IMG/VR virus record: IMGVR_UViG_3300044971_004534
Source of the DNA: a virus
DNA: 64,000 bases
Reading direction: 5' to 3' (one strand)
This document shows positions 48,508 through 63,887 of this stretch, piece after piece; positions within the stretch are counted from its first letter, which is position 1, and every line of letters begins with the position of its first letter. Made by a program: the position numbers and the translations under genes. The notes under the pieces were generated by a model. It had not been told where the DNA came from and did not search any database. It saw only the letters and a list, made by a program, of their open reading frames with translations.

Positions 48508-48540
48508 CTCTTTTTCCCCCTCCCGAGGGGAGATTGGCGA
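48508..48540 (+). promoter_or_regulatory. 33-nt promoter-like module, copy 1 (57-nt leader)
   Basis: CTCTTTTTCCCCC + TCCCGAGGGGAGATTGGCGA; TT at spacer positions 14-15. Confidence 0.5.
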
Positions 48541-48597
48541 AAAGCGGCAACGGTCGCTTCCACTACCCAAACTTTGATGTAATCTATCGGCAGTCCC

Positions 48598-49572
48598 ATG
48601 AGCGCAGACTTCAGCCTTCAAGACATCCCCTTTGAGTCACTACCCACGGAGACAGTTCGCAGTCTGTGCGAGATCGCCGTCCGTCACATGGGAAGCAATG
48701 TCCGTTACTACGACCACGGGCTGATTGCTCAGGTTGCCAAGATGGACTATCGCGTTCCTGCGACCATGCGTATCGCTCAGGGGTATGGGTATGGTTCTAC
48801 GAGCGCCGTATGGGGAGCCTTGAGCGAAAACAAGGAAGCGGTTATGACGCTTCTGAACGCTGTGCTTAGTGACCGCAAGGGTGGTTCACAGCGTCATACC
48901 ATGCTTGGCAAGAGCGATATCGCTCCGTCTGTCATCACGAACCCGGACATCTTGTCCTTTGTCTTGAGCGAATCGGACTTTGGCGGTGGTCGCAATGGAA
49001 GCGGCTGCATGGAAAGTCAGGTTTTCGTTCAGGTTACGGACAATCAATGGAACGGGCTTTTTGAGGATCATCCTGCGCTTGTCGCCAAGGCTTTTGCCTC
49101 TCGCCCGTTCCTTCTCAATCGTTTCGTCCGTAATCGTTCTATGCCGAAGGATCGCATCCTGCAAGTTGCAAAGACTGCGCTTGGCTTTACTCATGCGTTC
49201 GACATGGATGCTCCCACCACCCTGAGCCGTGAGGGGCTTTCGGATAGTTCTGTCCGCCCTGACATGGAGGAGATTTACGACGATCTTTTCATGCACATTT
49301 GCACGATCTGCCGCAAGGACAGGGAGAATATGCAGCGCATCAAGGGTGATCTTGACAACCACAGCGTTGGTGGCAAAAAGACCCGCCGCCGTGATGCTGG
49401 CTGGATGACTTCCTACCTGAACGGCAAGTGGGAAGGTGGTCACAAGGATTTCGTGATTCGTACCTGTCGCCTTATTCCGCCTTTTTTCAACCTGATGCAC
49501 AGCAGCGCAAAGGTTTCGGGTGAGATGCGAACCTTGAGGCGGATGTACCAACTAAGTGGAGATGCAAACTGA
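48598..49572 (+). CDS. hypothetical protein
   Basis: 324-aa ORF; the antisense 221-aa ORF is rejected. Confidence 0.6.
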   Translation: MSADFSLQDIPFESLPTETVRSLCEIAVRHMGSNVRYYDHGLIAQVAKMDYRVPATMRIAQGYGYGSTSAVWGALSENKEAVMTLLNAVLSDRKGGSQRHTMLGKSDIAPSVITNPDILSFVLSESDFGGGRNGSGCMESQVFVQVTDNQWNGLFEDHPALVAKAFASRPFLLNRFVRNRSMPKDRILQVAKTALGFTHAFDMDAPTTLSREGLSDSSVRPDMEEIYDDLFMHICTICRKDRENMQRIKGDLDNHSVGGKKTRRRDAGWMTSYLNGKWEGGHKDFVIRTCRLIPPFFNLMHSSAKVSGEMRTLRRMYQLSGDAN

Positions 49573-49611
49573 AAAAAGTTTGTAATCTATCAAAAAGCGG
49601 CAAGAATATGC

Positions 49612-49639
49612 TTGCACGATAGCATACACAGGCTATAAT
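49612..49639 (+). promoter_or_regulatory. sigma70-like promoter
   Basis: TTGCAC-16 nt-TATAAT, 17 nt upstream of ATG 49657. Confidence 0.55.
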
Positions 49640-49656
49640 CACAGGTTGCACTTTTT

Positions 49657-50601
49657 ATGCCACGAACATCAATCCCAGTCGAAGGAATGCTTGGAAGCCT
49701 GAGTCTCAACCGTGAAGTTGAGTTCATGGTCCAAATGCTTGGTTGGAGTGAATCTCAGATTGTAAGCGCAGTCTTGAGCGCACACCCTGAACTGAAGTCA
49801 GATCAACAGTCCCTTATCAACCATATTCGCGTATGCCGTTCACGGTATCGCACAGATCAGAAAGAGAATGCAGAAGTGAGCGCACTTATTGGCGGTGGAA
49901 CGGTCACCTCACTTGACAAGATTGCAGACAAGAAACTTGTCCGCTTTGCTTGTGGTATCGACCACATTGATATGCTGTGGGGTTTTTCAGAAGATGGGAA
50001 GATCAAGGGATTTCCTCGCGGGCAAATCAGCCTGATTGCGGGAAGCCCCGGCGTGGGCAAGACTCGCGCCATGATCGCTGTCTGCGGCAAGATCAGCGCA
50101 CCGGACTATCGACCTGCACTCAAGGCACTTTATTGGCAAAATGAGTTTGCACTTGAGCAGTTCAAGACTGTATCAAAGTCTCAAATCAAGTCAGGCGCAC
50201 GGTTTAGGTGCGGAGACATCCGCTCTTTGAAGGAGCAGTTGAAGGTCGTTGACAAGGAGAAGCCCGATCTTGTCGTGGTTGACTCTATTCAGATGCTTGA
50301 AGAAGCAAAGAACAAGACAGGCATGGAACGCTGCATCGCGGCTTACAAGGCTGCTGCCGTGGAACACAACATCCATGTCGTTCTTGTCGGTCAGTTGAAC
50401 AAGCGCGAACAAGTCGCAGGAAGTCGTGTGTTGGAACATCTTGTGGACTCTGTATTTACGGCAGTTCGTGACCGTGATACGGGAGGATTCGCCATCCGTT
50501 GTACGAAAAACAGATGGGGAATGTCAGGTATCCAAGGTTGCTTCAAGCACACAGCAACGGGCATTGAGCCTGTCGGAGACATCACCCAATCGGAGGATTG
50601 A
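49657..50601 (+). CDS. RadA/Sms-like RecA-superfamily ATPase (no Zn finger or Lon domain)
   Basis: 'ISLIAGSPGVGKTR' Walker A, 'DLVVVDSIQML' Walker B, 'VVLVGQLNK', 'KNRWG' RadA-type motif. Confidence 0.7.
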   Translation: MPRTSIPVEGMLGSLSLNREVEFMVQMLGWSESQIVSAVLSAHPELKSDQQSLINHIRVCRSRYRTDQKENAEVSALIGGGTVTSLDKIADKKLVRFACGIDHIDMLWGFSEDGKIKGFPRGQISLIAGSPGVGKTRAMIAVCGKISAPDYRPALKALYWQNEFALEQFKTVSKSQIKSGARFRCGDIRSLKEQLKVVDKEKPDLVVVDSIQMLEEAKNKTGMERCIAAYKAAAVEHNIHVVLVGQLNKREQVAGSRVLEHLVDSVFTAVRDRDTGGFAIRCTKNRWGMSGIQGCFKHTATGIEPVGDITQSED

Positions 50602-50882
50602 ACATGAATAACGAAACAAGTTTGGTAAACAACAAGCCCACATTCAAGCCGCTTCCCATGTACAAGGTGATTGTTCACAACGATGATGTGAACACCTACA
50701 ATCACGTTATTGGGACTTTCATGGAAATCATCAAAATGGACAAGCAGACCGCCCTCCTCAAGACTGTTGAAGTCGATAAGGAAGGGATGTCCGTGGTGTC
50801 CGTGACGCACAAGGAACACGCTGAACTGTTACAGGATCAGTTGAAGTCCAAGGCTCTCACGGTCACTATTGAGCCGGATTGA
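50598..50882 (+). CDS. clpS: ClpS, ATP-dependent Clp protease adaptor
   Basis: 'PMYKVIVHNDDVNTYNHVIGTFMEI...A..K..EV...G...V.V...E.AE' colinear with E. coli ClpS '[23 protein letters not shown]'. Confidence 0.8.
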   Translation: MNMNNETSLVNNKPTFKPLPMYKVIVHNDDVNTYNHVIGTFMEIIKMDKQTALLKTVEVDKEGMSVVSVTHKEHAELLQDQLKSKALTVTIEPD

Positions 50883-50894
50883 TTACAAAAGACT

Positions 50895-50966
50895 GCGGTT
50901 GTCGTATAATGGCTATTACGCGGGTTTTCCAAACCCGTCATGGGAGTTCGATCCTCCCCTACCGCA
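50895..50966 (+). tRNA. tRNA-Gly (anticodon TCC)
   Basis: Acceptor GCGGTTG/CTACCGC (one mismatch), anticodon arm CGGGT-TTTCCAA-ACCCG, T-loop TTCGATC. Confidence 0.85.
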
Positions 50967-50970
50967 TTCC

Positions 50971-51003
50971 CTCTTTTTCCCCCTCCGGTGGGGGATTTGA
51001 GGG
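50971..51003 (+). promoter_or_regulatory. 33-nt promoter-like module, copy 2 (59-nt leader)
   Basis: CTCTTTTTCCCCC + TCCGGTGGGGGATTTGAGGG; starts 5 nt after tRNA-Gly. Confidence 0.5.
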
Positions 51004-51062
51004 CGTTGGGACTCCAGCGGGGAGAACCATACAATCGTTTCTAAAGTTTGGAGCAATAACAA

Positions 51063-52085
51063 ATGAATCTCGTTGAGAAGATCAAGCGCAACCGCAAGAC
51101 GGGTGTTCCCACCTTCATCTTTGGTGCGCCCGGTGTTGGCAAGTCGCAGATGGTTCATCAGGCAGCGGACGGGGACACCGTGATTGATGTCCGTCTGTCC
51201 ATGCTTGATCCGGTTGACCTGCGTGGTCTGCCGACCGTCAAGCAGAACGGCGATGGTGAGTCCGTGGTTGAGTGGGCGCGTCCTGAGTTCATCCCGGCTG
51301 AAGGCAAGGGCATCATCTTCTTTGATGAGTTGAACACCGCCCCCGCTGCCGTGCAGAACGCTGCGCTTCAGATCATCCTTGATCGCAAGTGTGGTCCGCA
51401 TAAGTTGGGCGATGGTTGGTACATCGTGGCTGCGGGAAACAAGGCTTCCCACAAGGCTCATGTCAACCCGCTCTCCGCACCGCTCCGCAACCGCTTTGCC
51501 GTGGTTGAGTACGAGCCGTCCGTTGAGGCTTGGTCTGCGTGGGCGATGGGTGCGGGAGTTCACGACCATGTGATCGGCTTCCTCAACTTCCGCCCCGGTC
51601 TGCTCACGACCGATCCGAAGGACGAGTACGCCAACTTTGCCTCCCCCCGTTCGTGGGATCGCGTGTCGAAGTTCCTTCAGGCGGGTCTTGACGAGCAGGA
51701 GGACATGGAGCCTCTTGTCGGCAAGGGTGCTGCTGCGGAGTTCACGGCGTATCGGACGGAGATTCGGGATATGCCCGACATTGACGCTCTGATTGCGAAG
51801 AAGGCTGAGTTCAAGGAGAACCCCAAGAAGATCAGCATTTCCTACGCTGTGGCGATGGCTCTCGCTTCCCGCCTGTCCCGTGGTGACAAGAAGTTCGTGA
51901 CCACGAACGCGGATCGGTGCTGTGAGATCGTGTCTGCCCTGTCCCCGGAGATCGCGTGTCTGTTCTTTGTCCGTACTCTCACCTCCGATCCTCATGTCAA
52001 GACCGCTGTGTGTGAGAGCAAGTCTGCTCACAAGTGGGTGCTGACCCATGAGAAGTTGCTGACGAAGTACGGGATCAAGAAGTAA
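51063..52085 (+). CDS. MoxR/AAA_5-type AAA+ ATPase
   Basis: 'FIFGAPGVGKSQ' Walker A, 'IIFFDELNTAPAAVQNAALQIILDR' Walker B/sensor, 'APLRNRF'. Confidence 0.8.
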   Translation: MNLVEKIKRNRKTGVPTFIFGAPGVGKSQMVHQAADGDTVIDVRLSMLDPVDLRGLPTVKQNGDGESVVEWARPEFIPAEGKGIIFFDELNTAPAAVQNAALQIILDRKCGPHKLGDGWYIVAAGNKASHKAHVNPLSAPLRNRFAVVEYEPSVEAWSAWAMGAGVHDHVIGFLNFRPGLLTTDPKDEYANFASPRSWDRVSKFLQAGLDEQEDMEPLVGKGAAAEFTAYRTEIRDMPDIDALIAKKAEFKENPKKISISYAVAMALASRLSRGDKKFVTTNADRCCEIVSALSPEIACLFFVRTLTSDPHVKTAVCESKSAHKWVLTHEKLLTKYGIKK

Positions 52086-52132
52086 TCCCCCCGCAGGAGT
52101 GGGGGGAGGGCGGCAACGCTCTCCCCCTCTCC

Positions 52133-52165
52133 CTCTTTTTCCCCCTTCCCCGAAGGACTTGGGAC
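52133..52165 (+). promoter_or_regulatory. 33-nt promoter-like module, copy 3 (ends at ATG)
   Basis: CTCTTTTTCCCCC + TTCCCCGAAGGACTTGGGAC, then ATG 52166. Confidence 0.55.
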
Positions 52166-53416
52166 ATGGCAAAGAAGAAGAACAACTCCACCGCAACCGC
52201 CGCTCCTGCTGCCGACAACGCTCAGGATGTCGGACTCACGCCTTCTGAACTCAACGAACTCCGTGAGCGCATGAAGGGCATCGTGTTCCGTATGTACCGC
52301 TTCTTTCCCTTTTGGGGACTGCTTGCGGAGAACTGCAAGGTGTCGATCAAGTCCGACAAGGATGTTCCGACCGCCTGTGTTGACCGATACGGCAACATCA
52401 GTTTCGGAGCAAAGTTCTTCAAGGACTTGACCGAAGATCAGGCGTTGTTCGTCCTCGCGCATGAGATCGGTCACGCTGCGTTCAGTCACATTGATCGCCG
52501 TCAGAGCCGTGATCCGCTGCTTTGGAATGTTGCGATTGACTACGCCATCAACCTCCTCCTGTCGGACAACTTCAACGATTCCAAGTATCTGCCGAAGGGT
52601 GTCCTGCTTGACAAGAAGTACGCGGGGATGTCCGCTGAGGAGATTTACGAAGATGTCATCCGCAACGCCAAGACCGTGAAGGTCTACACGCTTTCGGGCG
52701 ATGTTGACTACAGCGACAAGGGCGAGGATGGCGATGGCGATGGCGATGGCATCGTGATCCGTGATCGCCGTGCCGAAAAGAAGGGCAACGAGCAGGGTTG
52801 GGATCAGGCAATCGCCTTGAGCCATGCCCGTGCAAAGATGCAGGGCGATATGCCTGAGTCTCTTGATCGTGCCGTGTCGGAGAAGTTGGGCAGCAAGATT
52901 GATTGGCGCGAAGCACTCAAGCAGTACCTCCGCTTTGGCGTGACTCGCATCCTGCGGGATCACTACACCTTCATGCCCCCGAACCGCCGCTTTGTCCATC
53001 AGGGTCTTTACTTGCCGTCCATGTACGGCAACGATGCCCCGAAGATCGGCTTTGCCGTGGACACCTCCGGTTCGATTGGTGAGTCAGAGATGGCTCAGGC
53101 AATCGCTGAGATTGATGAGATTCGCCGTCAGTTCAACTGCCCTCTTTACCTTGTGGAGTGTGATGCGGAAGTCCATGACGGGCGTTGGATCAGTCCCGAT
53201 CAGTCCTGCCCAACGGCGTTCAAGGGCGGCGGCGGAACCGATTTCCGTCCCGTGTTTGACCACCTCAAGGAGCAGAAAGTCCCCGTGGACATTATGGTGT
53301 ACCTCACCGATGGCTACGGCGAGTTTGGAGATCAGCCCGAAGTCGATGTCCTTTGGGTCACGACCACGAATGTCAAGCCGCCTTATGGCGACCACATTCA
53401 AGTGGGTGTGGGCTAA
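52166..53416 (+). CDS. metallopeptidase-like + von Willebrand factor A domain protein (DUF2201-type)
   Basis: 'LAHEIGHAAFSH' HExxH and 'FAVDTSGSIGESE' MIDAS DxSxS; typical partner of MoxR ATPases. Confidence 0.75.
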   Translation: MAKKKNNSTATAAPAADNAQDVGLTPSELNELRERMKGIVFRMYRFFPFWGLLAENCKVSIKSDKDVPTACVDRYGNISFGAKFFKDLTEDQALFVLAHEIGHAAFSHIDRRQSRDPLLWNVAIDYAINLLLSDNFNDSKYLPKGVLLDKKYAGMSAEEIYEDVIRNAKTVKVYTLSGDVDYSDKGEDGDGDGDGIVIRDRRAEKKGNEQGWDQAIALSHARAKMQGDMPESLDRAVSEKLGSKIDWREALKQYLRFGVTRILRDHYTFMPPNRRFVHQGLYLPSMYGNDAPKIGFAVDTSGSIGESEMAQAIAEIDEIRRQFNCPLYLVECDAEVHDGRWISPDQSCPTAFKGGGGTDFRPVFDHLKEQKVPVDIMVYLTDGYGEFGDQPEVDVLWVTTTNVKPPYGDHIQVGVG

Positions 53417-53446
53417 TATGGGGGACAGGGGCGAAAGCCCCTCTCC

Positions 53447-53479
53447 CTCTTTTTCCCCCTCCGTGGGGGAAGTTGGAGA
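53447..53479 (+). promoter_or_regulatory. 33-nt promoter-like module, copy 4 (83-nt leader)
   Basis: CTCTTTTTCCCCC + TCCGTGGGGGAAGTTGGAGA; follows an AGGGGC-GAAA-GCCCCT hairpin. Confidence 0.5.
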
Positions 53480-53562
53480 GTCAGCCGGATGTTCCGGTTG
53501 ACAGTAGCACTTGAGAGCCACAAACCAAGTCGCATGACTTGTTTAGGTGGCAAGGAGAAAAG

Positions 53563-54213
53563 ATGGCTAACACCATCAGCAACGCATCGGTCGTCGTCAG
53601 CAACGCTCAGGCTCACGCCCTGATCCGTACCTCCCTCGCTAAGAGCGGTTCGTGCAAGACGATGAAGGGTAACTCCACGGCTGACACCATGTTGGTGGAC
53701 AAGTCGCGTGGTGAGAAGTACGCCATTGACGCGACCGTTCGCATGACGGGAACGATCAGCGTGGAGCAGAACGGCACGATCAAGAAGCGTCTTGATCGGT
53801 TCAAGTTGTTCACTCAGGCTGTCATCAATCTGACTCGTCAGGGTGCGCCCATCAACAAGGCTCTCATCATCGGTGAGATGGATCGCCTGTGGACGCTTCA
53901 CAAGGACAACCGTGACCTCAAGCAGATCGACAGCGAGACTTTCGATTCTGTCCTTGGGGAACTCTTTGGACGGGATTTCTGCGACCGGATGTACGCTCCG
54001 GTTGACGAGTCCGCTCCGAAGGCGGGTGACTTCAGCGTGAGCGACCTCAGCATCGACATCCTCAACTCCATCGTTGGGGCTGTCGGGTCGGAGAATCCCG
54101 CTGTGTGGAACATCACTCCCACTCCGGTTGCAGCCGTCACTCATGCTGCGGGTGGACCGCAGAATGATGCGGATGCTAAGAACAGCAAGCCTGTTCGCAG
54201 GAAGCGGAAGTGA
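53563..54213 (+). CDS. hypothetical protein
   Basis: ATG 53563 with 'caaggagaaaagATG' SD (track ORF begins TTG 53539); basic C-terminal tail. Confidence 0.55.
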   Translation: MANTISNASVVVSNAQAHALIRTSLAKSGSCKTMKGNSTADTMLVDKSRGEKYAIDATVRMTGTISVEQNGTIKKRLDRFKLFTQAVINLTRQGAPINKALIIGEMDRLWTLHKDNRDLKQIDSETFDSVLGELFGRDFCDRMYAPVDESAPKAGDFSVSDLSIDILNSIVGAVGSENPAVWNITPTPVAAVTHAAGGPQNDADAKNSKPVRRKRK

Positions 54214-54263
54214 CCAATAATCGGGCGGGGAGTGGGGGTAAAACCCCCTCCCCGTTCGATACG

Positions 54264-54296
54264 CTCGTTTTCCCCCTTCCCTCTTTAGGTTGGGGT
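54264..54296 (+). promoter_or_regulatory. 33-nt promoter-like module, copy 5 (153-nt leader)
   Basis: CTCGTTTTCCCCC + TTCCCTCTTTAGGTTGGGGT; upstream of the sigma70-like promoter at 54341. Confidence 0.45.
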
Positions 54297-54340
54297 ATAA
54301 GAAAAATCAAGAATCTTCTTACATTTGTTACTAACATCAC

Positions 54341-54368
54341 TTGACACAAATAAGAAGCGTTCTATGAT
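54341..54368 (+). promoter_or_regulatory. sigma70-like promoter
   Basis: TTGACA-16 nt-TATGAT. Confidence 0.55.
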
Positions 54369-54449: not shown

Positions 54450-55121
54450 ATGAAGAACAGCAACACGGGCATGGTTCTTGCCCCGAACCCGGCTGACATC
54501 ATCAGCCGTCAGTTGAAGTTGGACCGCAACACTTTCCTTCAGGCTGTCAACCTCTACAACTCGCTGACGCAGTTGGATCAGTCAGCGACGGTTGCCGCCC
54601 CGAACGAAGGTGGCGAGGAGGACACGGGCAAGCGTGGTCCCGGTCGCCCGAAGGGGTCGAAGAACCGGAAGCCCGGTCGCCCGAAGGCGAAGCGTGGTCC
54701 CGGTCGCCCGAAGAAGAAGCGTGGTCCGGGTCGCCCCAAGGCGAAGAAGGGTCCGGGTCGCCCCGCTGCCAAGCGTGGTCCCGGTCGCCCGAAGGGGTCG
54801 GTTGCCAAGCGCAAGACGGTGAAGGGTGGCGCAACCGCCTCTCGCCGTGGTCGCAAGGCGAAGAACCCGAACGGCATGACCATGCGCGATGCGGTCACTA
54901 ACGCTCTCCGCAACGCCAATGGTCCGGTGAAGGCTCCTGCCATCGCTGAAACCCTCAAGGGTCAGGGCTTTACGAGCAAGTCGCTCAACACTCAGGTGGC
55001 TCAGGAGTTGAGCCGCATGGTGACTGATGGACTTGCCAGCCGCCCTGAGCGTGGTTCGTATGCTTGGTCGGGCAGCAACGCCCCGGCAGAGCAGACGGCT
55101 GAAGTCGCTCAGACCGCCTGA
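54450..55121 (+). CDS. AT-hook repeat DNA-binding protein with C-terminal H1-like winged helix
   Basis: Six '(K/R)(R/K)GPGRPK' AT-hooks at aa 61-116; the C-terminal 'MRDAVTNALRNANGPVKAPAIAETLK...RPERGSYAW' resembles a linker-histone globular domain. Confidence 0.7.
   Translation: MKNSNTGMVLAPNPADIISRQLKLDRNTFLQAVNLYNSLTQLDQSATVAAPNEGGEEDTGKRGPGRPKGSKNRKPGRPKAKRGPGRPKKKRGPGRPKAKKGPGRPAAKRGPGRPKGSVAKRKTVKGGATASRRGRKAKNPNGMTMRDAVTNALRNANGPVKAPAIAETLKGQGFTSKSLNTQVAQELSRMVTDGLASRPERGSYAWSGSNAPAEQTAEVAQTA
54630..54797 (+). repeat. coding tandem repeats (about 30 bp) encoding the AT-hooks
   Basis: Reiterated AAGCGTGGTCCCGGTCGCCCGAAG variants; they create spurious ORFs in other frames. Confidence 0.8.
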
Positions 55122-55538: not shown

Positions 55539-55567
55539 TTGACACTCCATTGAACCAACGCTATACT
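55539..55567 (+). promoter_or_regulatory. sigma70-like promoter
   Basis: TTGACA-17 nt-TATACT. Confidence 0.6.
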
Positions 55568-55947: not shown

Positions 55948-56302
55948 GGGGCTGAACTGGTTTCGATTGCTGAAGGACTATTCGATACTGCACGACGAGG
56001 CTGATGGGCAACTCGTAAAAAGCCGATCAAACAACAACCGCCAACGAATCGTTGATGGCTGTCGCTGCTTGATGCAGCAAAGTTCTTAGAAGTTGGACAC
56101 TTGCTTCTAAGAACTGTCTGAAGTGTCGATCAGCGTACTGCGAAGTTCCAACGCATAAGGCGCTGAAGTTAATATTATATGATTTGGAACTTTCAAAGGA
56201 CTCATGGTACGAGGACTCCTTTGATCGACGGACTCGTACCTAGCGTGGAGAAGGTGCGATAGGACTTTTGCCAACACAGGGGTTCGACTCCCCTCGGCTC
56301 CA
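55948..56302 (+). ncRNA. ssrA: tmRNA (SsrA), one-piece
   Basis: 5' GGGGCTGAACTGGTTTCGA pairs with 3' CGGCTCC + A (G3:U wobble); T-arm GGGGTTCGACTCCCC; tag ORF 56022-56072 'ADQTTTANESLMAVAA*' preceded by in-frame TAA; CCA not encoded. Confidence 0.85.
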
Positions 56303-56311
56303 TTCAGCAAG

Positions 56312-57588: not shown

Positions 57589-57855
57589 ATGGAGCGCAAT
57601 CCTCTATACAGTAAGAGTCGAAAGACAAGCCGTATCATCAATCAGGTTGATAATACGCCGTCTTTGCCTCAGCCAATCCTCAGTCCGATGGTGCGAGTTG
57701 GACTGTACAACTTGGTAACTGGAAGGAATGCGAGTCCTGTTGCGGGTAGCGGTGCTTCATTGAACCAGTATTATGATTCTTTGGACGCTCAGGGTATTGC
57801 GTATCCTGAGTTCGGACCCAATCTTGTGAAACTCAATAAGCCCCCGGAAGGGTGA
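57589..57855 (+). CDS. hypothetical protein (candidate leaderless)
   Basis: 'TGTATACT' ends 7 nt before ATG 57589; no SD. Confidence 0.4.
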   Translation: MERNPLYSKSRKTSRIINQVDNTPSLPQPILSPMVRVGLYNLVTGRNASPVAGSGASLNQYYDSLDAQGIAYPEFGPNLVKLNKPPEG

Positions 57856-57889
57856 GGGGTTGAGGGTTCGCCCTCCCCCTCACCTTTTT
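57851..57889 (+). terminator. rho-independent terminator
   Basis: Compound hairpin GGTGAGGGG-TT-GAGGG-TTCG-CCCTC-C-CCCTCACC followed by TTTTT. Confidence 0.7.
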
Positions 57890-57922
57890 CTCTTTTTCCC
57901 CCACGATGGGGAAGGTTGTGGC
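57890..57922 (+). promoter_or_regulatory. 33-nt promoter-like module, copy 6 (13-nt leader)
   Basis: CTCTTTTTCCCCC + ACGATGGGGAAGGTTGTGGC; followed by 'agcaaggacgatcATG'. Confidence 0.5.
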
Positions 57923-57935
57923 AGCAAGGACGATC

Positions 57936-58853
57936 ATGCCCATCCGACACCTCGGTTATGCCTGTCAGAATATGACCCTCGGGGAGACTAAGCCAGTCTC
58001 CAAGCGTGTCTTTACGGACAGAACGCTTCGGATGGACGGGTTTAGTCTGCGGCGAGTAAATGAACTTGCCCTGTCGAACTCCCGTGATCTGCTCAAGATC
58101 ATGTGGTGGAATGTTGAAAATAAAATCAACTTCTTCCGCATTGGTTCAGGGATGTTTCCGTTCATGGATCATCCCGAACTGAAGTACGGTCTTGATGACC
58201 TCGCTACTGCGTTCACGATCAAGGGCGTGTTTCAGAATGTCGGCAACCTTGCCCGTGAGCATGGTATCCGGCTGTCAATGCACCCCGGTCCATACACCTG
58301 TCTTGCATCCCCTGATGAGGCAGTTGTCGCTAAGTCCTTGCTGTGCGTGGAGATGCACTCAATGGTTGGCGATCTTCTTGGAATGGATGACTTCCCAATC
58401 AACATCCACATTGGTGGTGTGTATGACGGCAAGGAAGGGTGTGCAGAGCGGTTTGTCCACAACTTCTCCCGACTTTCTCCACGCGCTCAATCAAGGCTGA
58501 CGCTTGAAAACGATGACAAGGAGGGAATGTGGACGATTCGTGACCTTCTTCCGGTGCATGAAAAGACAGGTATTCCACTTGTTCTTGACATTCATCACCA
58601 CTCGCTCAACACAGGTGGAGATGAACTGACAGCCGTAGCAGACATCGCTCTTTCCACTTGGAACGGAAAAACTCCAAAAGTTCATTATAGTGAACCTAAA
58701 GAGGGTTGCCGTCCCCAAGCACATTCCGACTACATCGTGAATGAGATTCCCGAACTTTGTCCAGTCAGACAATACGATGTGATGATTGAGGCAAAGGCAA
58801 AGGAACTCGCTCTCCTCAAATACAGAAACCTCTTTTTCCCCCTCTCTCGGTGA
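57936..58853 (+). CDS. uvdE: UV damage endonuclease UvdE/UvsE
   Basis: ATG 57936 preferred (ATG 57906 lies inside the module); 'LGYACQN', 'INIHIGG', 'TLENDD', 'DIHHH', 'HSDY', 'MIEAKAKELAL'. Confidence 0.8.
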   Translation: MPIRHLGYACQNMTLGETKPVSKRVFTDRTLRMDGFSLRRVNELALSNSRDLLKIMWWNVENKINFFRIGSGMFPFMDHPELKYGLDDLATAFTIKGVFQNVGNLAREHGIRLSMHPGPYTCLASPDEAVVAKSLLCVEMHSMVGDLLGMDDFPINIHIGGVYDGKEGCAERFVHNFSRLSPRAQSRLTLENDDKEGMWTIRDLLPVHEKTGIPLVLDIHHHSLNTGGDELTAVADIALSTWNGKTPKVHYSEPKEGCRPQAHSDYIVNEIPELCPVRQYDVMIEAKAKELALLKYRNLFFPLSR

Positions 58854-58862
58854 ACTTACGAT
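58830..58862 (+). promoter_or_regulatory. 33-nt promoter-like module, copy 7 (ends at ATG; inside the uvdE 3' end)
   Basis: CTCTTTTTCCCCC + TCTCTCGGTGAACTTACGAT, then ATG 58863. Confidence 0.55.
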
Positions 58863-59975
58863 ATGCCCGCACGCATCTACGACAATCTCTCTGTTGATTC
58901 GGTCAGCGTCAGCAACTCTCACTCTGCTGCCCTTATTGGTGACAGCATCCTTGGGTGGGGTAGCCGCGCCAAGAGCAAGTTGGACTTCCCGGTTGGCAAG
59001 TTCGTGAGCGCAGCCTGTGGCTTCTCTCACTCTGCCGCCGTTGACTCCAACGGCAGTCTTTTCACCATTGGCAACGCGCTTGGTGGCAAGTTGAACAGCG
59101 GCAATCTGAACAGTCGTGGCAAGTTCAAGACCGTTCGCTGCTCTCGCAACTACACCGCTGCGACCATTGAGTACGGTGACGGAAAGCATCGGATTGCCGT
59201 GTTTGGCGATCAGAAGCCGTACAGCGTTCTCCCGTCCACGATTTACTCCAAGACGGCTAAGGATGAAGGTGTGTTCACCTTTGACTCCAACATCGGAGAC
59301 TTTGACATTGATGACAACGGGACTCTCGTTGTTGATGATCTCAAGGGTTCGATCTCCGTCATTCGTGGCAGCATTTGCAGCCTGAGCGGACTTCCCGGTA
59401 AAGTTACCAAGGTTCGTTGCGGCGACCCCAACACCACGACCATTGCAATCGCCCATGTGAATGACAGGGCATATCTGCTCACCCGCACCCACACGGGAAC
59501 TCAGCAGATTGCGGAGATTGCGGGTGATGTCACCGATGTGATCTGTGCAAACAAGTTCTATGGATATGTTGTTTCCAAGCGTGAACTCGTTGTCGTTGGA
59601 GAGCATTTCGGAAACATTCGCCTTCCCGATGGTTGGTCGATTGAGAGCGCCGATGGCGGCAATAATGGTTATGCAATCTGTGTGAGCGACAATGAAGGCA
59701 GTCGCCATCTTGTCCTTGTTGGAGACAACACCAAGAACAAGGAACTTGTGATCGAAGGTCACGATCATCGTGAATGCCCCCGCAAGGACGGCATGATCTA
59801 TGAGATTCGTGAGGACAAGACCGCCAAGGCGAAGCCGATTGTCGTTGCCGCTGTCAGCGCGATCACCGATGATTGCGATGATTCCGACTACGAGTGTGAG
59901 CCGTGCAAGTTCCGCTTTGTCGCAAAGTCCCCTGTTTGCCCGATGTGTAAGGGCGAGGTGGCGGTCAATGTTTGA
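58863..59975 (+). CDS. RCC1-like repeat (beta-propeller) protein with C-terminal zinc ribbon
   Basis: Repeats such as 'DSILGWGSRAKSKLDFP', 'NGSLFTIGNALGGKLNSG', 'RELVVVGEHFGN'; 'CEPCKFRF...CPMCKGE'. Confidence 0.45.
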   Translation: MPARIYDNLSVDSVSVSNSHSAALIGDSILGWGSRAKSKLDFPVGKFVSAACGFSHSAAVDSNGSLFTIGNALGGKLNSGNLNSRGKFKTVRCSRNYTAATIEYGDGKHRIAVFGDQKPYSVLPSTIYSKTAKDEGVFTFDSNIGDFDIDDNGTLVVDDLKGSISVIRGSICSLSGLPGKVTKVRCGDPNTTTIAIAHVNDRAYLLTRTHTGTQQIAEIAGDVTDVICANKFYGYVVSKRELVVVGEHFGNIRLPDGWSIESADGGNNGYAICVSDNEGSRHLVLVGDNTKNKELVIEGHDHRECPRKDGMIYEIREDKTAKAKPIVVAAVSAITDDCDDSDYECEPCKFRFVAKSPVCPMCKGEVAVNV

Positions 59976-60113
59976 ACGCAAGTGGTATTCCAACATTGAA
60001 CCGATCATGGATTGGTGGATCAGCAATACTCCAAAGTGGATGCAGCCTCATTTTGTTTGGACTGCCTACTTTTTTGCCATCGACCGATTTCCTTGAACCG
60101 ATAAATCGTTGAA

Positions 60114-60197
60114 GGCTCTGTGGCGGAACTGGCAGACGCAGCGGACTCAAAATCCGCCGCCGTAAAAAGCGTGTGGGTTCGACCCCCACCGGAGCCA
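60114..60197 (+). tRNA. tRNA-Leu (anticodon CAA)
   Basis: Type II; acceptor GGCTCTG/CGGAGCC, 'TGGCGGAACTGGCAGACGC' D-arm, anticodon arm GCGGA-CTCAAAA-TCCGC. Confidence 0.9.
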
Positions 60198-60200
60198 TTC

Positions 60201-60285
60201 GGGACTGTGGCGGAATCGGCATACGCAGCAGACTTAAAATCTGCCGACCTCAAAAGTCTTGTGGGTTCAAGTCCCACCAGTCCCA
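60201..60285 (+). tRNA. tRNA-Leu (anticodon TAA)
   Basis: Type II; acceptor GGGACTG/CAGTCCC, anticodon arm GCAGA-CTTAAAA-TCTGC; 3 nt after the previous tRNA. Confidence 0.9.
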
Positions 60286-60318
60286 CTCTTTTTCCCCCTC
60301 TCCCGGTAGGATTGCGGC
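60286..60318 (+). promoter_or_regulatory. 33-nt promoter-like module, copy 8 (ends at ATG)
   Basis: CTCTTTTTCCCCC + TCTCCCGGTAGGATTGCGGC, then ATG 60319; starts right after tRNA-Leu. Confidence 0.55.
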
Positions 60319-61029
60319 ATGACCAAGGTTTTGGACAACGCATCCGTAGTGAAGGCTTACCGATCACTCCTCAAGGAGTCAAAGGATTGGGGGCATCGTT
60401 TCTCAACTCCCGCCGTTCGTGGCGTACTGAATCGACTTTTTGGTCTTGATGCACTGAGGCTTGATTATTCCAACGAGGAATATGCACTTGCCTTGATTCG
60501 CAGCGATCCCAACTCAATCTCTTGCATTCCTGAGCAAGTTTGGGAAAAGATCAAGGATGACGCAGACAACATCCTCACGCTTCAGCGTGTGGGTGGAGCG
60601 ATGCCTCACAACACGGAGGGTATTCAGTTTTGCCTTGTTGTTGACGAAGGATGGGAGTTGCTTGGGTGGCAACCTCTTGCCTTGATTCTCGCTGCCGGGG
60701 CAATCAAGATGGACATTTACACCATCGGCTCAGGCATTGATGGTGATGATTCCATTGACATCACCTTCTTCAAGGATGTGAACAAGCCGATTGATCTTGA
60801 CTACGAGACTTGGACTTGGGACATCAATGATTGGCTCATCAACTCGTATGCGTACAGGAATGTGGCAATCACCATCCATGTTGACATTCTCAAGTTGAAT
60901 GTCACCTGCGAGGGAGAGATGGCAGTTCGCAGAAGTTTCGCGGAAAAAATGAGTATTTCCAACAAGAACAATCTTGTTCAGTCAGTTGATGACATCTTGG
61001 TGTCAGTTGGCAAAAAACTGACTACTTGA
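60319..61029 (+). CDS. hypothetical protein
   Basis: 236-aa ORF. Confidence 0.55.
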   Translation: MTKVLDNASVVKAYRSLLKESKDWGHRFSTPAVRGVLNRLFGLDALRLDYSNEEYALALIRSDPNSISCIPEQVWEKIKDDADNILTLQRVGGAMPHNTEGIQFCLVVDEGWELLGWQPLALILAAGAIKMDIYTIGSGIDGDDSIDITFFKDVNKPIDLDYETWTWDINDWLINSYAYRNVAITIHVDILKLNVTCEGEMAVRRSFAEKMSISNKNNLVQSVDDILVSVGKKLTT

Positions 61030-61034
61030 CCCTT

Positions 61035-61067
61035 CTCGTTTTCCCCCTCTAGCCGTGGGTTTGAGGT
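61035..61067 (+). promoter_or_regulatory. 33-nt promoter-like module, copy 9 (ends at ATG)
   Basis: CTCGTTTTCCCCC + TCTAGCCGTGGGTTTGAGGT, then ATG 61068. Confidence 0.55.
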
Positions 61068-62270
61068 ATGAGCATCAAGGTCGATTCTTTCTTCAGCGGA
61101 CACAGCGCCGCCGCATTCACCCTGAGTGATGGCAGCATTCGCATGGTCGGAGAAGCGGGTCGTGAGGGAGCCTTTGGCTTCTACTCCAAGGGGTGTCACT
61201 CGTACACGAAGATTTCTCCCAACGGAGTGATTGTCGGCAGCATCAGCAACAAGTATTTCCACGCTCCTCCTCAGCACATCGGTCACATCGTGAAGTGCGT
61301 GACCATGTGGGGAATGACTTTCGCCATTGATAACACGGGCAGACTGTACGCTTGGGGTACATTCAAGAAGCGTCAATGGGACTCTATCCCATTTGACCGT
61401 ACTTTCAAGAACATCATGTGCGTTGGATGGGGGACCATTCTCTTTACTCAAACGGATGGAACGAGCGTTCCCATGTTCTTGCGTGAAGAAGGTCCGTCAA
61501 CGACCATGTTCTTCCAACACGCTAAGTCATTTCCTGCAATCAAGTCTGCTGCGATTGCGCGAGACAGCGGGTACATGATGGGTGAAGATGGCAGTCTCCT
61601 TTACTATTGGGACAAGAACGGTTCAGATAGCGACAAGAGTTGTGACTGGAAGTGCAAGACCGTAAGTGATTGCATTTGGGCTTCATTCAGCGATGGAAGC
61701 CTGATCTATAGGGACGGAAGGGGTGTGCATATTGCCATGAGGGGCAACAACAAGTGGAGTACCTCCATGAGTATCGCTGCCGTTGAGGACAAGGAAAGCC
61801 CTATTCATCGTGCAGTTGCATCAGCGGATCATTTCACTAACGACAATCAGGCATTCTTGCTTGACGATAACTCCATTCTGCGTTGCATCAACGGCAGATT
61901 CCGTGGAGACAAGTGCGAAGGCAGCATCACTCCTGTGTTTGAGGATGGAGTGAAGCAGTTTGACTGCAACTTTGTCCTTACGAACAAAGGTGTAATCATC
62001 CCGATTTCTGATGAGGCTTGGAGTCGTACTGACATGGTTCTGTCAGCCTTTGACGAATGGGCTGATGACGAGGACATCGTGTACGGAATGTGCAAGATTG
62101 CCCCTCGCAACTTCCTGTGTGCCTCTAATCGTCTACGCAAGGATGTTGACTTCTGCAAGAAGATTGCACAACTTGGACCCCATGCGTATCAGTACATTGA
62201 TGGCATGGTCAGAAGGAATCGTGAACTGCGTCCATACAAGCATATGTATGCGATGGCAGGAGATCGGTAG
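61068..62270 (+). CDS. hypothetical protein (possible RCC1-like repeats)
   Basis: 400 aa; 'DGSIRMVGEAGREGAFG', 'TGRLYAWGTFKKRQW' repeat-like strands. Confidence 0.5.
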   Translation: MSIKVDSFFSGHSAAAFTLSDGSIRMVGEAGREGAFGFYSKGCHSYTKISPNGVIVGSISNKYFHAPPQHIGHIVKCVTMWGMTFAIDNTGRLYAWGTFKKRQWDSIPFDRTFKNIMCVGWGTILFTQTDGTSVPMFLREEGPSTTMFFQHAKSFPAIKSAAIARDSGYMMGEDGSLLYYWDKNGSDSDKSCDWKCKTVSDCIWASFSDGSLIYRDGRGVHIAMRGNNKWSTSMSIAAVEDKESPIHRAVASADHFTNDNQAFLLDDNSILRCINGRFRGDKCEGSITPVFEDGVKQFDCNFVLTNKGVIIPISDEAWSRTDMVLSAFDEWADDEDIVYGMCKIAPRNFLCASNRLRKDVDFCKKIAQLGPHAYQYIDGMVRRNRELRPYKHMYAMAGDR

Positions 62271-62273
62271 ACC

Positions 62274-62306
62274 CTCGTTTTCCCCCACCGCACCGGAACT
62301 TACGAC
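62274..62306 (+). promoter_or_regulatory. 33-nt promoter-like module, copy 10 (ends at ATG)
   Basis: CTCGTTTTCCCCC + ACCGCACCGGAACTTACGAC, then ATG 62307. Confidence 0.55.
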
Positions 62307-62726
62307 ATGAGCCACCCTTACTACCACGCCAAGAGTTCCGCCAAGAAGTTTGGTGGTCAGCCGGAAGATTACATCGCTCTACATGAATGGTTCGATCAGA
62401 CGAAGGCTCATCTTCCCGATGCGCGTCACCGCTCTGTTCTCCATTCGTCTTTCGGCATCTACATGGCGCAGCAAGTCTTTGGTGAGGTGATCGTTCGCAA
62501 GTCAGACGGCAAGCCTGTCCCCACCCGAATGCTTGGCGAACAGCACGTTCTTGAGGACATGGGTATGATTCCCACGCTTCAAGATTGGCTCAAGGAACTC
62601 CCCCTGCGTTCGTGGATGATCCGTGGCGCAAAGGCTTTGAGCAAGGAGCAAGACTCTGCTGAAGGCGGTATGTGTGAGCCGAATCAGCACGAAGTTATTG
62701 GACAGCCTGTGACTACAGAAAGTTGA
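62307..62726 (+). CDS. conserved phage/bacterial protein of unknown function
   Basis: 'HPYYHAKSSAKKFGGQPEDYIALHEWFDQTKAHLPDARHRSVLH' is a motif I recall from a widespread DUF family (name not certain). Confidence 0.55.
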   Translation: MSHPYYHAKSSAKKFGGQPEDYIALHEWFDQTKAHLPDARHRSVLHSSFGIYMAQQVFGEVIVRKSDGKPVPTRMLGEQHVLEDMGMIPTLQDWLKELPLRSWMIRGAKALSKEQDSAEGGMCEPNQHEVIGQPVTTES

Positions 62727-62782
62727 CCTAAAAGTTGATATCCCGTATCAGATGAGTTTTGAAAGGGATATCAATAGGTAAC

Positions 62783-62855
62783 GAGACTGTAGCTCAGTTG
62801 GTAGAGCAATCGGCTTTTAACCGATTGGTCATGGGTTCAAGTCCCATCAGTCTCA
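62783..62855 (+). tRNA. tRNA-Lys (anticodon TTT)
   Basis: Acceptor GAGACTG/CAGTCTC, anticodon arm ATCGG-CTTTTAA-CCGAT, T-loop TTCAAGT. Confidence 0.9.
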
Positions 62856-62860
62856 TTCAA

Positions 62861-63106
62861 ATGAAAAAAGAACGATCCAACACCTTTGCTGTGGTGGATG
62901 GCGTTCTGTTCTTGGGCAAAAACGGTGATATTGTCGGGGTGGATAAATCGGGCAAGGAAACACAGCGGATTCCGCTAGACAACATTGCTGAATGTTGTAG
63001 ACTAGTATCCGCACATCCCGGCATATACAACATACTTCCGAAATCGCTTAGAAATAACAAAGAGATAAAGTCAACCTACCTGATAGCAAAGTTAGGTAAG
63101 GGCTGA
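62861..63106 (+). CDS. hypothetical protein
   Basis: ATG 62861 just after the tRNA (the track ORF start runs through the tRNA). Confidence 0.45.
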   Translation: MKKERSNTFAVVDGVLFLGKNGDIVGVDKSGKETQRIPLDNIAECCRLVSAHPGIYNILPKSLRNNKEIKSTYLIAKLGKG

Positions 63107-63139
63107 CTCGTTTTCCCCCTCCACGGCAGGACTTGAGAC
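63107..63139 (+). promoter_or_regulatory. 33-nt promoter-like module, copy 11 (ends at ATG)
   Basis: CTCGTTTTCCCCC + TCCACGGCAGGACTTGAGAC, then ATG 63140. Confidence 0.55.
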
Positions 63140-63850
63140 ATGGCAAAGAAGAAGGCTACCAAGACCGTCAAGACCGCATCCGAGTCCAAGTTTGATTGGC
63201 TTGCTCATTTCAACAAGCCGCAGACTCGCAAGACCATTGTTCGACTCATTAGCATTTGCTCTGATGAGGAAGTCAAGATTGACACGAACGCGAAGCCCGA
63301 GCAGTTCGCAGAGCAGATCATCTCGTACTCTCCGAACTCTTGGAAGTTCATGCCCAAGTCTCTTATTCCTGATACGGAGCGGCGCAAGGTTCTTGAGACT
63401 TTGAACAAGTTGGCTTCACCCGAAGGGGAAAAGTCTTGGTATCGCCGCGACAACGCGGCTATTCCTCCCGCGATCCTCGCTCTTATGTCGCGTGGCGTGA
63501 AGTCTCTTGACTTCCAATACAGCGGTGGTTGGGATGAAACTTCCTATGACGAAGGCGCTCCTACGGTCGATTTCTTCCCTGATGCCCTGTCGAAGGCTGA
63601 TGAAAAGCGACTCAACAGCAACAAGTGGGATACTTTGCAGAAGTTCTACGGTGAACTTTTTGATTGGCTGAAGAACGAAACGGGAGTCGAAGCACGGGAC
63701 ATTCTGTACGCTTTCCTTGATGACTCCGGCGCAGGAGATGGGAACACCTACTCGCAGATGATGAAGATTGACCTTGAGAAGTGGTCAGTTCACCTTCACG
63801 ACTACGAGCAGGATGAGTACGAAGATGACGAGGAGGAGAGCGAGGAGTGA
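63140..63850 (+). CDS. hypothetical protein with acidic C-terminal tail
   Basis: 236 aa, ends 'YEQDEYEDDEEESEE'. Confidence 0.55.
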   Translation: MAKKKATKTVKTASESKFDWLAHFNKPQTRKTIVRLISICSDEEVKIDTNAKPEQFAEQIISYSPNSWKFMPKSLIPDTERRKVLETLNKLASPEGEKSWYRRDNAAIPPAILALMSRGVKSLDFQYSGGWDETSYDEGAPTVDFFPDALSKADEKRLNSNKWDTLQKFYGELFDWLKNETGVEARDILYAFLDDSGAGDGNTYSQMMKIDLEKWSVHLHDYEQDEYEDDEEESEE

Positions 63851-63854
63851 TGTC

Positions 63855-63887
63855 CTCGTTTTCCCCCTACAAGCAAGAGGTTGCAGC
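63855..63887 (+). promoter_or_regulatory. 33-nt promoter-like module, copy 12 (ends at ATG)
   Basis: CTCGTTTTCCCCC + TACAAGCAAGAGGTTGCAGC, then ATG 63888. Confidence 0.55.

Follow-up and report, generated by a model that had tools for sequence, protein, structure and literature searches.

The present study describes a 33-nt sequence module, CTCKTTTTCCCCC-N13-TTR-N4, that recurs in front of genes in a 64,000-nucleotide stretch of an uncultured phage-like genome (IMG/VR virus record IMGVR_UViG_3300044971_004534; the whole stretch is hereafter called the window). The module is real and non-random, and it is clearly functional. It is probably a bipartite phage-specific promoter whose transcription start (+1) would lie at module position 34, giving leaderless mRNAs in about 60% of the transcription units, and which would be recognized by a co-evolving phage-encoded reader. 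In independent assemblies, the genome is represented by mutually permuted contigs of ~280 kb (280,008 and 281,172 bp).

Copies of the module in the window

Exact matching of CTCKTTTTCCCCC returned 12 copies in the window, all on the + strand (Table 1). Dinucleotide-preserving shuffles gave an expected count of 0.01, and none of 100 shuffles reached 12. Allowing two mismatches added just five matches, which lie on the minus strand and are unrelated, and the TTTTCCCCC core occurs nowhere else in the window on either strand. In every copy, TT occupies module positions 27-28 (14-15 when counted from the C5 run), followed by G or A at position 29 (16 in that count).

An ATG stands exactly at position 34 in 7 of the 12 copies, for which the binomial probability is ~2e-10 at 1/64 per site. 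In six cases, no earlier start codon lies between this ATG and the preceding in-frame stop, and the open reading frames (ORFs) measure 139 to 416 aa; the seventh ORF (63888) extends past the window end and is called as a 109-aa gene. The abutting starts agree with independent gene calls on metagenome contigs. The remaining five copies are followed by leaders of 13, 57, 59, 83, and 153 nt, and AAGGA/GGAG precedes the ATG at 57936, 53563, 51063, and 54450. Most intergenic gaps consist of the module plus 3 to 6 nt, and the copy-to-copy distance (717 to 3626 nt) tracks gene lengths. The module has no CRISPR or tandem-repeat character, as there is no regular repeat-spacer periodicity. An Rfam scan, at a relaxed threshold too, placed no family over any module; tRNAs and the transfer-messenger RNA (tmRNA) were the only matches. 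Thus, the initial annotation had correctly described the number, strand, and positions of the copies in the window, their absence elsewhere in it, the invariant TT with the purine behind it, the seven junctions with a start codon, and the five leaders of 13 to 153 nt, several of them with AAGGA/GGAG.

The array beyond the window

When the 10 kb that follow the window in this genome were added, the count rose to 26 copies between 48,508 and 73,488, all 26 on the + strand. The window therefore holds only the start of the array, and the initially annotated total of 12 is right for the window while the array itself has at least 26 copies. Two of the 14 further copies are GACTTTTTCCCCC variants, which begin with GAC instead of CTC. 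A start codon occupies position 34 in 16 of the 26 copies (15 ATG and 1 GTG), and the other 10 have leaders of at least 13 nt, 8 of which carry AAGGA/GGAG 5 to 10 nt before the start. Leader lengths in the nine copies with an assignable start are 13, 13, 31, 43, 49, 57, 59, 83, and 153 nt. No start codon is displaced by +1 to +12 nt from the module end in any of the 26 copies; leader length is thus bimodal (0 or ≥13 nt). Since a leaderless message needs its start codon at the 5′ terminus and a leadered one needs room for a Shine-Dalgarno (SD) sequence, this all-or-nothing pattern is what a transcription start site (TSS) at position 34 predicts. SD spacing alone would leave the start codon more latitude than is seen here. 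The only GTG-start module (72441, corresponding to L227 19302) has a perfect AAGGAGGTG upstream of the start, and its orthologue starts with ATG.

The position weight matrix of the array reads c-CTCKTTTTCCCCC-Tcc..G..GRRn-TTG-nGGC, with A as the next base, and displays no conservation 5′ of the module. A pyrimidine occupies position -1 in 22 of 25 copies and a purine position +1 in 24 of 25 (A in 21 of 25), irrespective of the presence of an ATG. Similarly, TTG at -7 to -5 is conserved in abutting and leadered copies. Where the leader is at least 31 nt long, a stem-loop begins at +1, +2, or +5 in five of seven cases. On the other side of the module, two copies adjoin tRNA 3′ ends and six directly follow strong GC hairpins, so that the T-run of the module completes a terminator-like structure. 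We rejected the idea that the T-run is a mere terminator tail, because a strong upstream hairpin accompanies 6 of the 26 copies only and a looser threshold performed no better than random positions. Most modules have no terminator upstream.

Conservation in a close relative

All 12 modules of the window have kept their orthologues, with unchanged spacing, in a relative with ~75% nucleotide identity (L256 and IMG/VR contigs). Identity between the two is 95% in the core (positions 4-13), 89% in the TTR, 65% in the N4, and 46% in the N13, compared with 72% in the first 30 nt of the coding sequence downstream. This pattern points to purifying selection on the core and the spacing, not on the N13. 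Module 8 is kept in the relative, though the protein encoded from 60319 is only 42% identical. The same relative has 30 modules in 32 kb. Its first three module positions vary (AAC, TAC, GTC, CAC, and others), so that the true core is C-K-TTTTCCCCC.

Small indels separate the relatives inside the array. In our genome, two modules lie 79 nt apart (68429-68540, i.e., L227 15290-15401); the first of them, at 68429, is absent from the relative, and the second is without TT here, whereas its counterpart in the relative has the TT.

Lineage-specific replacement of the upstream box

Deeper relatives were reached through homologues of two window proteins. In their syntenic arrays, other upstream boxes occupy the same position with respect to the start codon. 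The lineages L259 (56% aa identity) and L258 (63%) have three copies each of CTAGAATCCCCCC-N13-TTR-N4 followed by G and of CTAGATTCTCCCT-CTCCCGCAAGGGT-CTR-N4 followed by ATG, respectively. In L268 and L266 (74%), the form is CCCGAAWCCCGAAAACGGGR-6 nt-TTR-GGnn followed by ATG, with exactly 13 nt from CGGGR to ATG and 10 copies in L268. L262 (74%; 38% GC) has 14 copies of AACATTTTGCCCGAAATCGGRAAAAC-TTT-RGRR followed by RTG, with the box AACATTTTGCCCGAAATCGG. L263 (53%) has 15 copies of ACCGGCGCGCA-N10-GACA-N5 followed by ATG, 8 of which place the ATG exactly 19 nt past the box. Thus, the start-proximal core GG-TTR-GGnY, with A behind it, is common to most lineages and the spacing is rigid, while the upstream box is replaced. 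Furthermore, orthologous genes retain their type of junction: a module directly adjoins the DUF2201 gene in six lineages, and a leader precedes the MoxR gene in our phage, L256, and L268. The sigma70-like promoters of the tRNA/tmRNA island remain TTGACA/TAnnnT in L258 and L259. Only the phage-specific class varies by lineage, which is the pattern to be expected were the upstream box read by a protein of the phage.

A contig of the L266 lineage (UViG_3300018050_001860) has roughly 40 copies over 35 kb, with a density of up to one per ~400 bp in a paralogous small-gene array, where the leaders all begin with a hairpin and then GAAAGG. No module arrays were found in relatives with ≤38% aa identity; L257 and L270-L276 are module-less. 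Among the GTDB representative genomes, none had more than one match to the module plus ATG. The 25 single matches approximate the estimated chance number, none is clustered, and phage homology was limited to one thioredoxin match; we therefore rejected a host-genome origin of the motif. L089, L101, and most single-copy metagenome and IMG/VR matches were likewise taken as chance or low-complexity. A literature search for the motif string returned irrelevant matches only.

The arrays of the relatives have peculiarities of their own. In a sister lineage (L278 10800-20400; L280 11045), 24 modules in 10 kb share a near-identical leader, RYMAGCGGCACAGCCGCAGAAAGG, made of a 5-bp hairpin and an SD, before paralogous ORFs of ~100 to 190 aa, and the array ends abruptly at ~45.7 kb of the contig. 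The L262 leaders have a second conserved element, CGCACCGCAA, ~25 to 30 nt 3′ of the module (1975-2000, 13095-13115, 15810-15830, and 16850-16875), and several L262 modules are followed by start-stop mini-ORFs (GTG-TAG, GTG-TAA, and ATG-AAA-TGA). At L263 19546, one box lies on the minus strand within a + strand gene and may be an antisense promoter. Other products of the relatives are PcfJ-like, SAM-lyase-like, and AcrVA2-like proteins, which would suit early or anti-defence functions. Right past the array, they have genes for glucose-6-phosphate dehydrogenase and a 2-hydroxyacid dehydrogenase (L280 17553-19866; L283 10987-13176 and 19957-20802; L262 2008-2994; L263 6312-7379). Glucose-6-phosphate dehydrogenase is an auxiliary gene known mainly from cyanophages, and its presence hints at a cyanobacterial host.

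A bipartite phage-specific promoter as the probable function

We propose that the module has two parts. The upstream box, c-CTCKTTTTCCCCC-Tcc, would lie at about -34 to -18, and the start-proximal core (G-11 R-10 R-9 n T-7 T-6 G-5 n G-3 G-2 C-1, then A+1) would be held exactly 13 bp from it. From the sequence, we infer transcription to start at module position 34. Where this base is the A of an ATG, the mRNA would be leaderless (16 of 26 copies have a start codon there, including 7 of the 12 in the window). Otherwise, the transcript would start with a leader (≥13 nt) that includes an AAGGA/GGAG, often past a stem-loop from +1 or +2. One module would head nearly every unit of 1 to 3 genes in an array of ~25 to 35 kb with early/middle-type, largely accessory genes. 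The reader is probably encoded by the phage, confers specificity, and evolves together with the upstream box; candidates are an RNA polymerase of the phage's own or a factor, sigma-like or appropriating, that works on the host enzyme. The initial annotation had already suggested a phage-specific promoter with +1 directly after the module and leaderless mRNAs. The promoter part is favoured by the co-orientation of the copies with genes, the presence of one module per transcription unit, the bimodal leaders, the pyrimidine at -1 with the purine at +1, the selection on the core and spacing, and the replacement of the upstream box next to constant host-type promoters; the position of +1 is a prediction.

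Several observations weigh against this proposal. In L262, positions 34-36 are RTG in 12 of 14 copies and the annotated ORF is not opened there, which means that an RTG at +1 can belong to the promoter without serving as a start codon. The RTG preference at +1 may then be a property of the initiating enzyme that genes exploit. An SD-like tract lies 7 to 9 nt 5′ of the ATG in most supposedly leaderless copies, and the perfect AAGGAGGTG before the sole GTG start is what one would expect were the N13 transcribed. The potential of the C-run and N13 to form a hairpin exceeds that of shuffles and could indicate a role at the RNA level. Moreover, of this genome ~74 kb of ~280 kb were read, and searches with Pfam and PHROGs found no RNA polymerase, sigma, MotA-like, or AsiA-like gene among the ~55 window ORFs, nor did precomputed Pfam calls over 10 kb on either side. 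The same was true of ~50 to 70 kb of the L266-lineage contig, much of which was screened by ORF size only; there, Pfam was run on 19 ORFs past the array, and the sole very large ORF (1305 aa) gave a faint SNF2-helicase match. The search for a phage sigma factor or polymerase gene that had been recommended initially was thus carried out on ~74 kb and on a relative's contig, and nothing was found.

One candidate for the reader was considered and rejected. A 223-aa protein (54450-55121) has both a module and TTGACA-16-TATGAT upstream. Over its last ~90 aa, it shows weak similarity to the Rok DNA-binding domain (PDB 5zuz, E 0.03), and a Pfam HARE-HTH domain is present in a single remote homologue. 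It was rejected since a 38% identical homologue exists in the syntenic L257, which has no modules.

Alternative explanations

The alternatives offered at the outset, a translational enhancer or an RNA processing site, are both weakened by the present data. A role in translation survives best among the rivals, but we regard it as unlikely. It would require that the module be transcribed, with a TSS upstream or within the 13-mer, and that the purine tract of the N13 be the real SD; the 13-mer would act as a translational enhancer, a standby site (e.g., for S1), or an anti-SD-like arm masking the SD, and the distance to the ATG would reflect ribosome geometry. The 3′ half of the N13 is indeed purine-rich (e.g., GAAGGA, TAGGA, CAGGA, and AGAGG), and this tract ends 7 to 9 nt before the ATG in most copies. 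The initial statement that the abutting genes have no normally spaced strong SD was therefore only partly right. The module consensus CCCCCTCC is anti-SD-like, and pairing of its C-run with the G-tract (-4.9 kcal/mol) exceeds that of N13 shuffles (-2.78 ± 0.39 kcal/mol; 0 of 300). Predicted pairing of the purine-rich tract with the anti-SD averages -6.8 kcal/mol, versus -3.1 for random 20-mers. However, it is equally strong (-6.5 kcal/mol) in the 10 copies that no ATG follows; the tract is therefore part of the module and does not serve the translation of the next gene alone. An explanation by SD only was rejected on the same ground, the duplex energies being the same in both classes. Besides, leadered copies have evolved a second SD, sometimes only 4 nt past the module, and SD spacing tolerates several nucleotides, whereas the ATG is fixed to the base in 16 copies and in diverged orthologues. 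The conservation of TTG at -7 to -5 and of the -1/+1 signature in both classes, the lack of any conserved would-be promoter 5′ of the module, and the location of six modules directly past terminator-like hairpins and two directly past tRNAs also argue against this role. The purine tract may instead act in the promoter as a DNA dyad or hairpin, on read-through transcripts as an SD, or in both ways.

It is improbable that the module is an operator-type site, where a phage DNA-binding regulator silences or times the array in the manner of a stoperator and which is not itself a promoter. An asymmetric 13-bp sequence in tens of copies, in one orientation relative to transcription, in short intergenic gaps and with a partial dyad, would suit such a site. 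But a second conserved element 13 bp away, the fixed distance to the start codon, and the -1/+1 signature would not, and gaps made mostly of the module plus 3 to 6 nt have no room for another promoter. An activator site within the promoter would be compatible with the promoter proposed here rather than a rival to it.

Processing of a polycistronic RNA by a phage or host endoribonuclease, cutting 20 nt past the C-run to release leaderless or short-leader monocistronic mRNAs, is highly improbable. A conserved box at a rigid distance from where the coding region starts would fit, as would the proximity of some modules to tRNAs, which are themselves processed. Small GC hairpins also recur in several lineages: sister lineages have fixed dyads at the same place (CCCG-AAAA-CGGG, CCCG-AAAT-CGGG, and CCC-GCAA-GGG), besides C5...G5. 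Yet, in our phage, the hairpin is strong (≤ -7 kcal/mol, with loops of 5 to 6 nt centred near -18) in just 8 of 26 copies, and none of the modules falls within an Rfam match. It is unlikely that one upstream promoter would serve a 25-kb array with six terminator-like hairpins, and module 1 lies at a divergent junction, where no upstream + strand transcript is expected.

Equally poor are the chances that the modules are recombination cassettes akin to the PeSL elements of T4-type phages (PMC2839356, PMC4122927), in which terminator-promoter units shuffle small accessory genes and gene conversion conserves the modules: the many small accessory ORFs, the six composite hairpin-plus-module units, the small indels inside the array, and the absence of the module at 68429 from the relative speak for it, but gene conversion would homogenize the N13, which differs among paralogous copies as well as between orthologues, and PeSLs are also promoters, so that this would be an added role and not an alternative.

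Genes served and genome context

The module-served genes in the window are non-structural. They encode a DnaB-like ATPase/helicase, ClpS, a MoxR-type AAA ATPase, and a DUF2201/vWA protein, as well as UvdE, RCC1-like, DUF4116, and DUF6915 proteins. Past the window, there are many small ORFs, with DUF932, DUF6011, DUF4241, and DUF1281 types. As the served genes are non-structural, early or middle expression is suggested, not late; the initial label of a middle/late promoter is thus doubtful in its second half. Module-to-ATG junctions at the orthologues of the module 3 gene are found in five other lineages, and the hairpin CTCC-AGCG-GGAG in the leader of module 2 is conserved in other lineages. 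At module 3, the upstream hairpin together with the T-run of the module makes an intrinsic-terminator-like structure.

Table 1. Modules, adjoining hairpins, and host-type promoters in the window
Feature	Coordinates	Strand	Context
Module 1	48508..48540	+	First of the array, at a divergent junction with minus-strand genes ending at 48468; 57-nt leader, ATG 48598, 324-aa ORF; stem-loop from +2 of the predicted transcript
Module 2	50971..51003	+	Begins 4 nt past tRNA-Gly (50894-50967); 59-nt leader with GGAG, ATG 51063, MoxR-type AAA ATPase
Module 3	52133..52165	+	Abuts ATG 52166; DUF2201/vWA metallopeptidase-like, 416 aa
Module 4	53447..53479	+	83-nt leader with AAGGA, ATG 53563; stem-loop of -17 kcal/mol from +1
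Module 5	54264..54296	+	153-nt leader containing a sigma70-like promoter (54341-54368); ATG 54450
Module 6	57890..57922	+	13-nt leader agcAAGGAcgatc, ATG 57936, UvdE endonuclease
Module 7	58830..58862	+	Overlaps the last codons of the UvdE gene; abuts ATG 58863, RCC1-like, 370 aa
Module 8	60286..60318	+	Begins at the last base of tRNA-Leu (60201-60286); abuts ATG 60319, 236 aa
Module 9	61035..61067	+	6 nt past the preceding stop; abuts ATG 61068, 400 aa, DUF4116
Module 10	62274..62306	+	4 nt past the preceding stop; abuts ATG 62307, DUF6915, 139 aa
Module 11	63107..63139	+	Abuts ATG 63140, 236 aa
Module 12	63855..63887	+	5 nt past the preceding stop; abuts ATG 63888, 109-aa gene leaving the window
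GC hairpin	52096..52132	+	-32.6 kcal/mol; directly 5′ of module 3
Similar GC hairpin	53420..53449		
Similar GC hairpin	54225..54255		
Similar GC hairpin	57850..57885		
Host-type promoter TTGACA-16-TATGAT	54341..54368	+	Leadered gene with strong SD
Host-type promoter	55539..55567		
Host-type promoter	33716..33744		
Host-type promoter	34925..34953		
Host-type promoter	38105..38133		

The window also contains host-type promoters (TTGACA-N16/17-TATACT/TATGAT/TAAAAT), at least four of five of which have leaders bearing a strong AAGGAG-type SD. The module is unlike them, as had been noted initially, and two promoter-like classes thus coexist. Two members of a family of small paralogous genes (33738-33799 and 34947-35008) have identical TTGACA-17-TATACT promoters and 22-nt leaders; genes of this family end in GGGACTGCTTCAAGGAGAAC (…GWDCFKEN), a tail that provides the SD of the next gene. 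At 39766-39995, a 64-codon ORF opens with an ATG 6 nt past a sigma70-like site, TTGACG-17-TACAAT; this ORF overlaps the 5′ part of a DUF4385 ORF in another frame and is possibly a leaderless gene under a host-type promoter.

Nine tRNAs (18901-19069, 43527, 50894, 55432, 56651, 60114, 60201, and 62783) and a tmRNA (55948-56305, 86 bits, tag ANESLMAVAA) are encoded. The tmRNA and two of the tRNAs form a 3.6-kb island (54.3-57.9 kb) that breaks up the module array and whose promoters are sigma70-like. Just 5′ of module 5, a sub-threshold Rfam match to PrrB/RsmZ (54156-54256, +; 26 bits against a gathering threshold of 44, E 0.013) extends over the last part of the gene at 53563-54213 and the terminator hairpin of that gene; the match could reflect a CsrA-titrating small RNA or chance. 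A CsrA homologue is encoded at 25119-25304 (+; Pfam E 5e-11) and is kept in the distant module-bearing L263 (16680-16970). CsrA blocks leaders containing GGA or an SD. Speculatively, phage messages without a leader might evade this block.

When 48-64 kb was compared with the GenBank phages by megablast, tRNAs alone matched. In tblastn with the DUF2201 protein, the best identity was 36% (Thermus phage phiFa, Bacillus phage G, and N4-like phages), and hence no close relative has been described. Two independent NCBI assemblies (L002 and L003; contigs of 27 kb and 280 kb) both start at window position 49657, the ATG of the DnaB-like gene ~1.1 kb past module 1, which may be a physical end, a repeat boundary, or a re-orientation by the pipeline. 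The G+C content rises from ~34% at 1-20 kb to ~50% at 28-64 kb of the window. The low-GC block, with 10 kb further upstream, is a sugar-modification island encoding a DegT aminotransferase, transketolase halves, a TylF methyltransferase, several epimerases/dehydratases, and glycosyltransferases. The region past the module array is likewise of 35% GC in a sister lineage (L283 10987-20987). A 300-nt direct repeat, 95% identical, lies at 31699-31998 and 36706-37005, 5,007 bp apart.

Implications

If position 34 is the start, the module and its counterparts provide a natural series of promoter-specificity switches in large phages, with at least six upstream boxes on one geometry, and the cognate polymerase or factor could be found by its co-variation with the boxes. 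The array would also rank among the most extensive uses of leaderless mRNA by a phage, with ~60% of its units. The module marks a 25- to 35-kb array of small, fast-evolving early genes, whose products in our phage or its relatives include DUF932, DUF6011, PcfJ-like, SAM-lyase-like, and AcrVA2-like proteins. Metagenomes could therefore be mined for anti-defence and host-takeover genes by a motif scan, in the way that regulatory sequences of archaeal viruses have already been used (PMC11065993).

A bolder interpretation, which we put forward only tentatively, is that the clade of ~280-kb phages possesses an unrecognised transcription system. Its polymerase or specificity subunit would be invisible to Pfam and PHROGs and would combine a lineage-specific box, often with a small GC dyad, and the shared GG-TTR-GGnY initiator, starting on the A of the ATG. 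Were this true, leaderless messages would escape SD-targeted control, for instance by the phage's own CsrA homologue, and the module would be a sequence tag for early anti-defence genes in metagenomes.

Comparison with known systems

The module lacks the defining sequence features of each family with which it was compared, and it should therefore not be filed as a member of any. For the sigma70/sigmaA class, the module has (g/c)cCTCK at -35 to -30 in place of a TTGACA-like hexamer ~17 bp ahead of the -10 element, and its conserved TTTTCCCCC lies at -29 to -21, the non-specific spacer of sigma70. In place of the -10 consensus TAnnnT, position -11 is G in 20 of 25 copies (A in 2 of 25), position -12 is T in 6 of 25, and position -7 is T in 25 of 25. 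Conservation right up to -1/+1, together with the G at -11, is unlike promoters of housekeeping sigma factors. The middle promoters of T4, dependent on MotA/AsiA, resemble the module in being bipartite, with a phage box near -30 that replaces the -35 element and a start-proximal element (PMC4496689). However, the MotA box (TGCTT core) and the sigma70 -10 TAnnnT are absent here, and neither Pfam nor PHROGs detected a homologue of MotA or AsiA in the window ORFs.

The promoters of the N4 virion RNA polymerase (PMC4496689) likewise contain small GC-rich inverted repeats and serve early genes, and N4-like phages share the MoxR/DUF2201 gene pair with our phage. Yet N4 has only three promoters, at the genome end, with an obligatory hairpin (5- to 7-bp stem, 3-nt loop) centred at -11, whereas the dyad here lies at about -18 to -20, is strong in a third of tens of copies (8 of 26), and has loops of 5 to 6 nt.

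Stoperators of cluster A mycobacteriophages are 13-bp asymmetric repressor sites that are oriented with transcription and have no fixed relation to start codons. The orientation bias is shared by the module, but its second element at fixed spacing and its fixed distance to the start codon set it apart. PeSL elements (PMC2839356, PMC4122927) are also repeated units among small accessory early genes in plastic regions, with a terminator stem-loop fused to a promoter. Nevertheless, they are host sigma70 early promoters that give leadered mRNAs, whereas the module is non-canonical, abuts the start codon, and has the stem-loop in 6 of 26 copies.

T7, T3, and SP6 have different promoters, and T7-type promoters form one contiguous block from about -17 to +6. 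In this group, as in the module, the sequence shifts by lineage, the position is kept, and conservation reaches the start site; a sequence that changes by lineage at a constant position fits co-evolution with a polymerase. The module differs in having two blocks (-33 to -21 and -11 to +1) around a variable 13 bp, with the strongest conservation at -33 to -21 and weak conservation at -20 to -8 (46% N13 identity between orthologues). Furthermore, no polymerase gene was found in the sequence read here, and the transcripts would often be leaderless. Thermus phage P23-45 has strongly conserved motifs for its own polymerases (PMC10770324). Its gp96/gp64 motifs, like the promoters of T7, T3, and SP6, are near-identical, stand in one orientation before transcription units, and are absent from host genomes, as is the case for the module. 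On the other hand, phiKZ, a giant phage with its own polymerases, has no leaderless transcripts (PMC8244752).

The Thermus phages YS40 and Lalka27a have mostly leaderless transcripts and phage-specific promoter variants, with the TSS 6 nt past a G-rich TAGGGT element and a conserved C at -25 (bioRxiv 10.64898/2026.04.20.719267). The geometry of the module is compatible with such leaderless units: ATG or GTG stands at position 34 in 16 of 26 copies, 6 nt past the invariant T-7, with a pyrimidine at -1 and a purine at +1. The two systems share an initiator A/G at the 5′ end, a start 6 nt past the last T (TAGGGT in Lalka27a; nGRRnT here), a C near -25, and a phage factor presumed to retarget transcription. 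In contrast, YS40 and Lalka27a keep the TAnnnT frame of host sigma-A, whereas our array has G at -11 in 20 of 25 copies and an essential-looking 13-bp upstream box. Their TSSs are measured, those of the module are predicted, and the hosts and phages are unrelated in sequence. Overall, the module is closest in function to phage-specific promoters for phage-encoded or phage-retargeted polymerases, in outcome to the leaderless units of YS40 and Lalka27a, and in genome architecture to the PeSL cassettes of T4-like phages.

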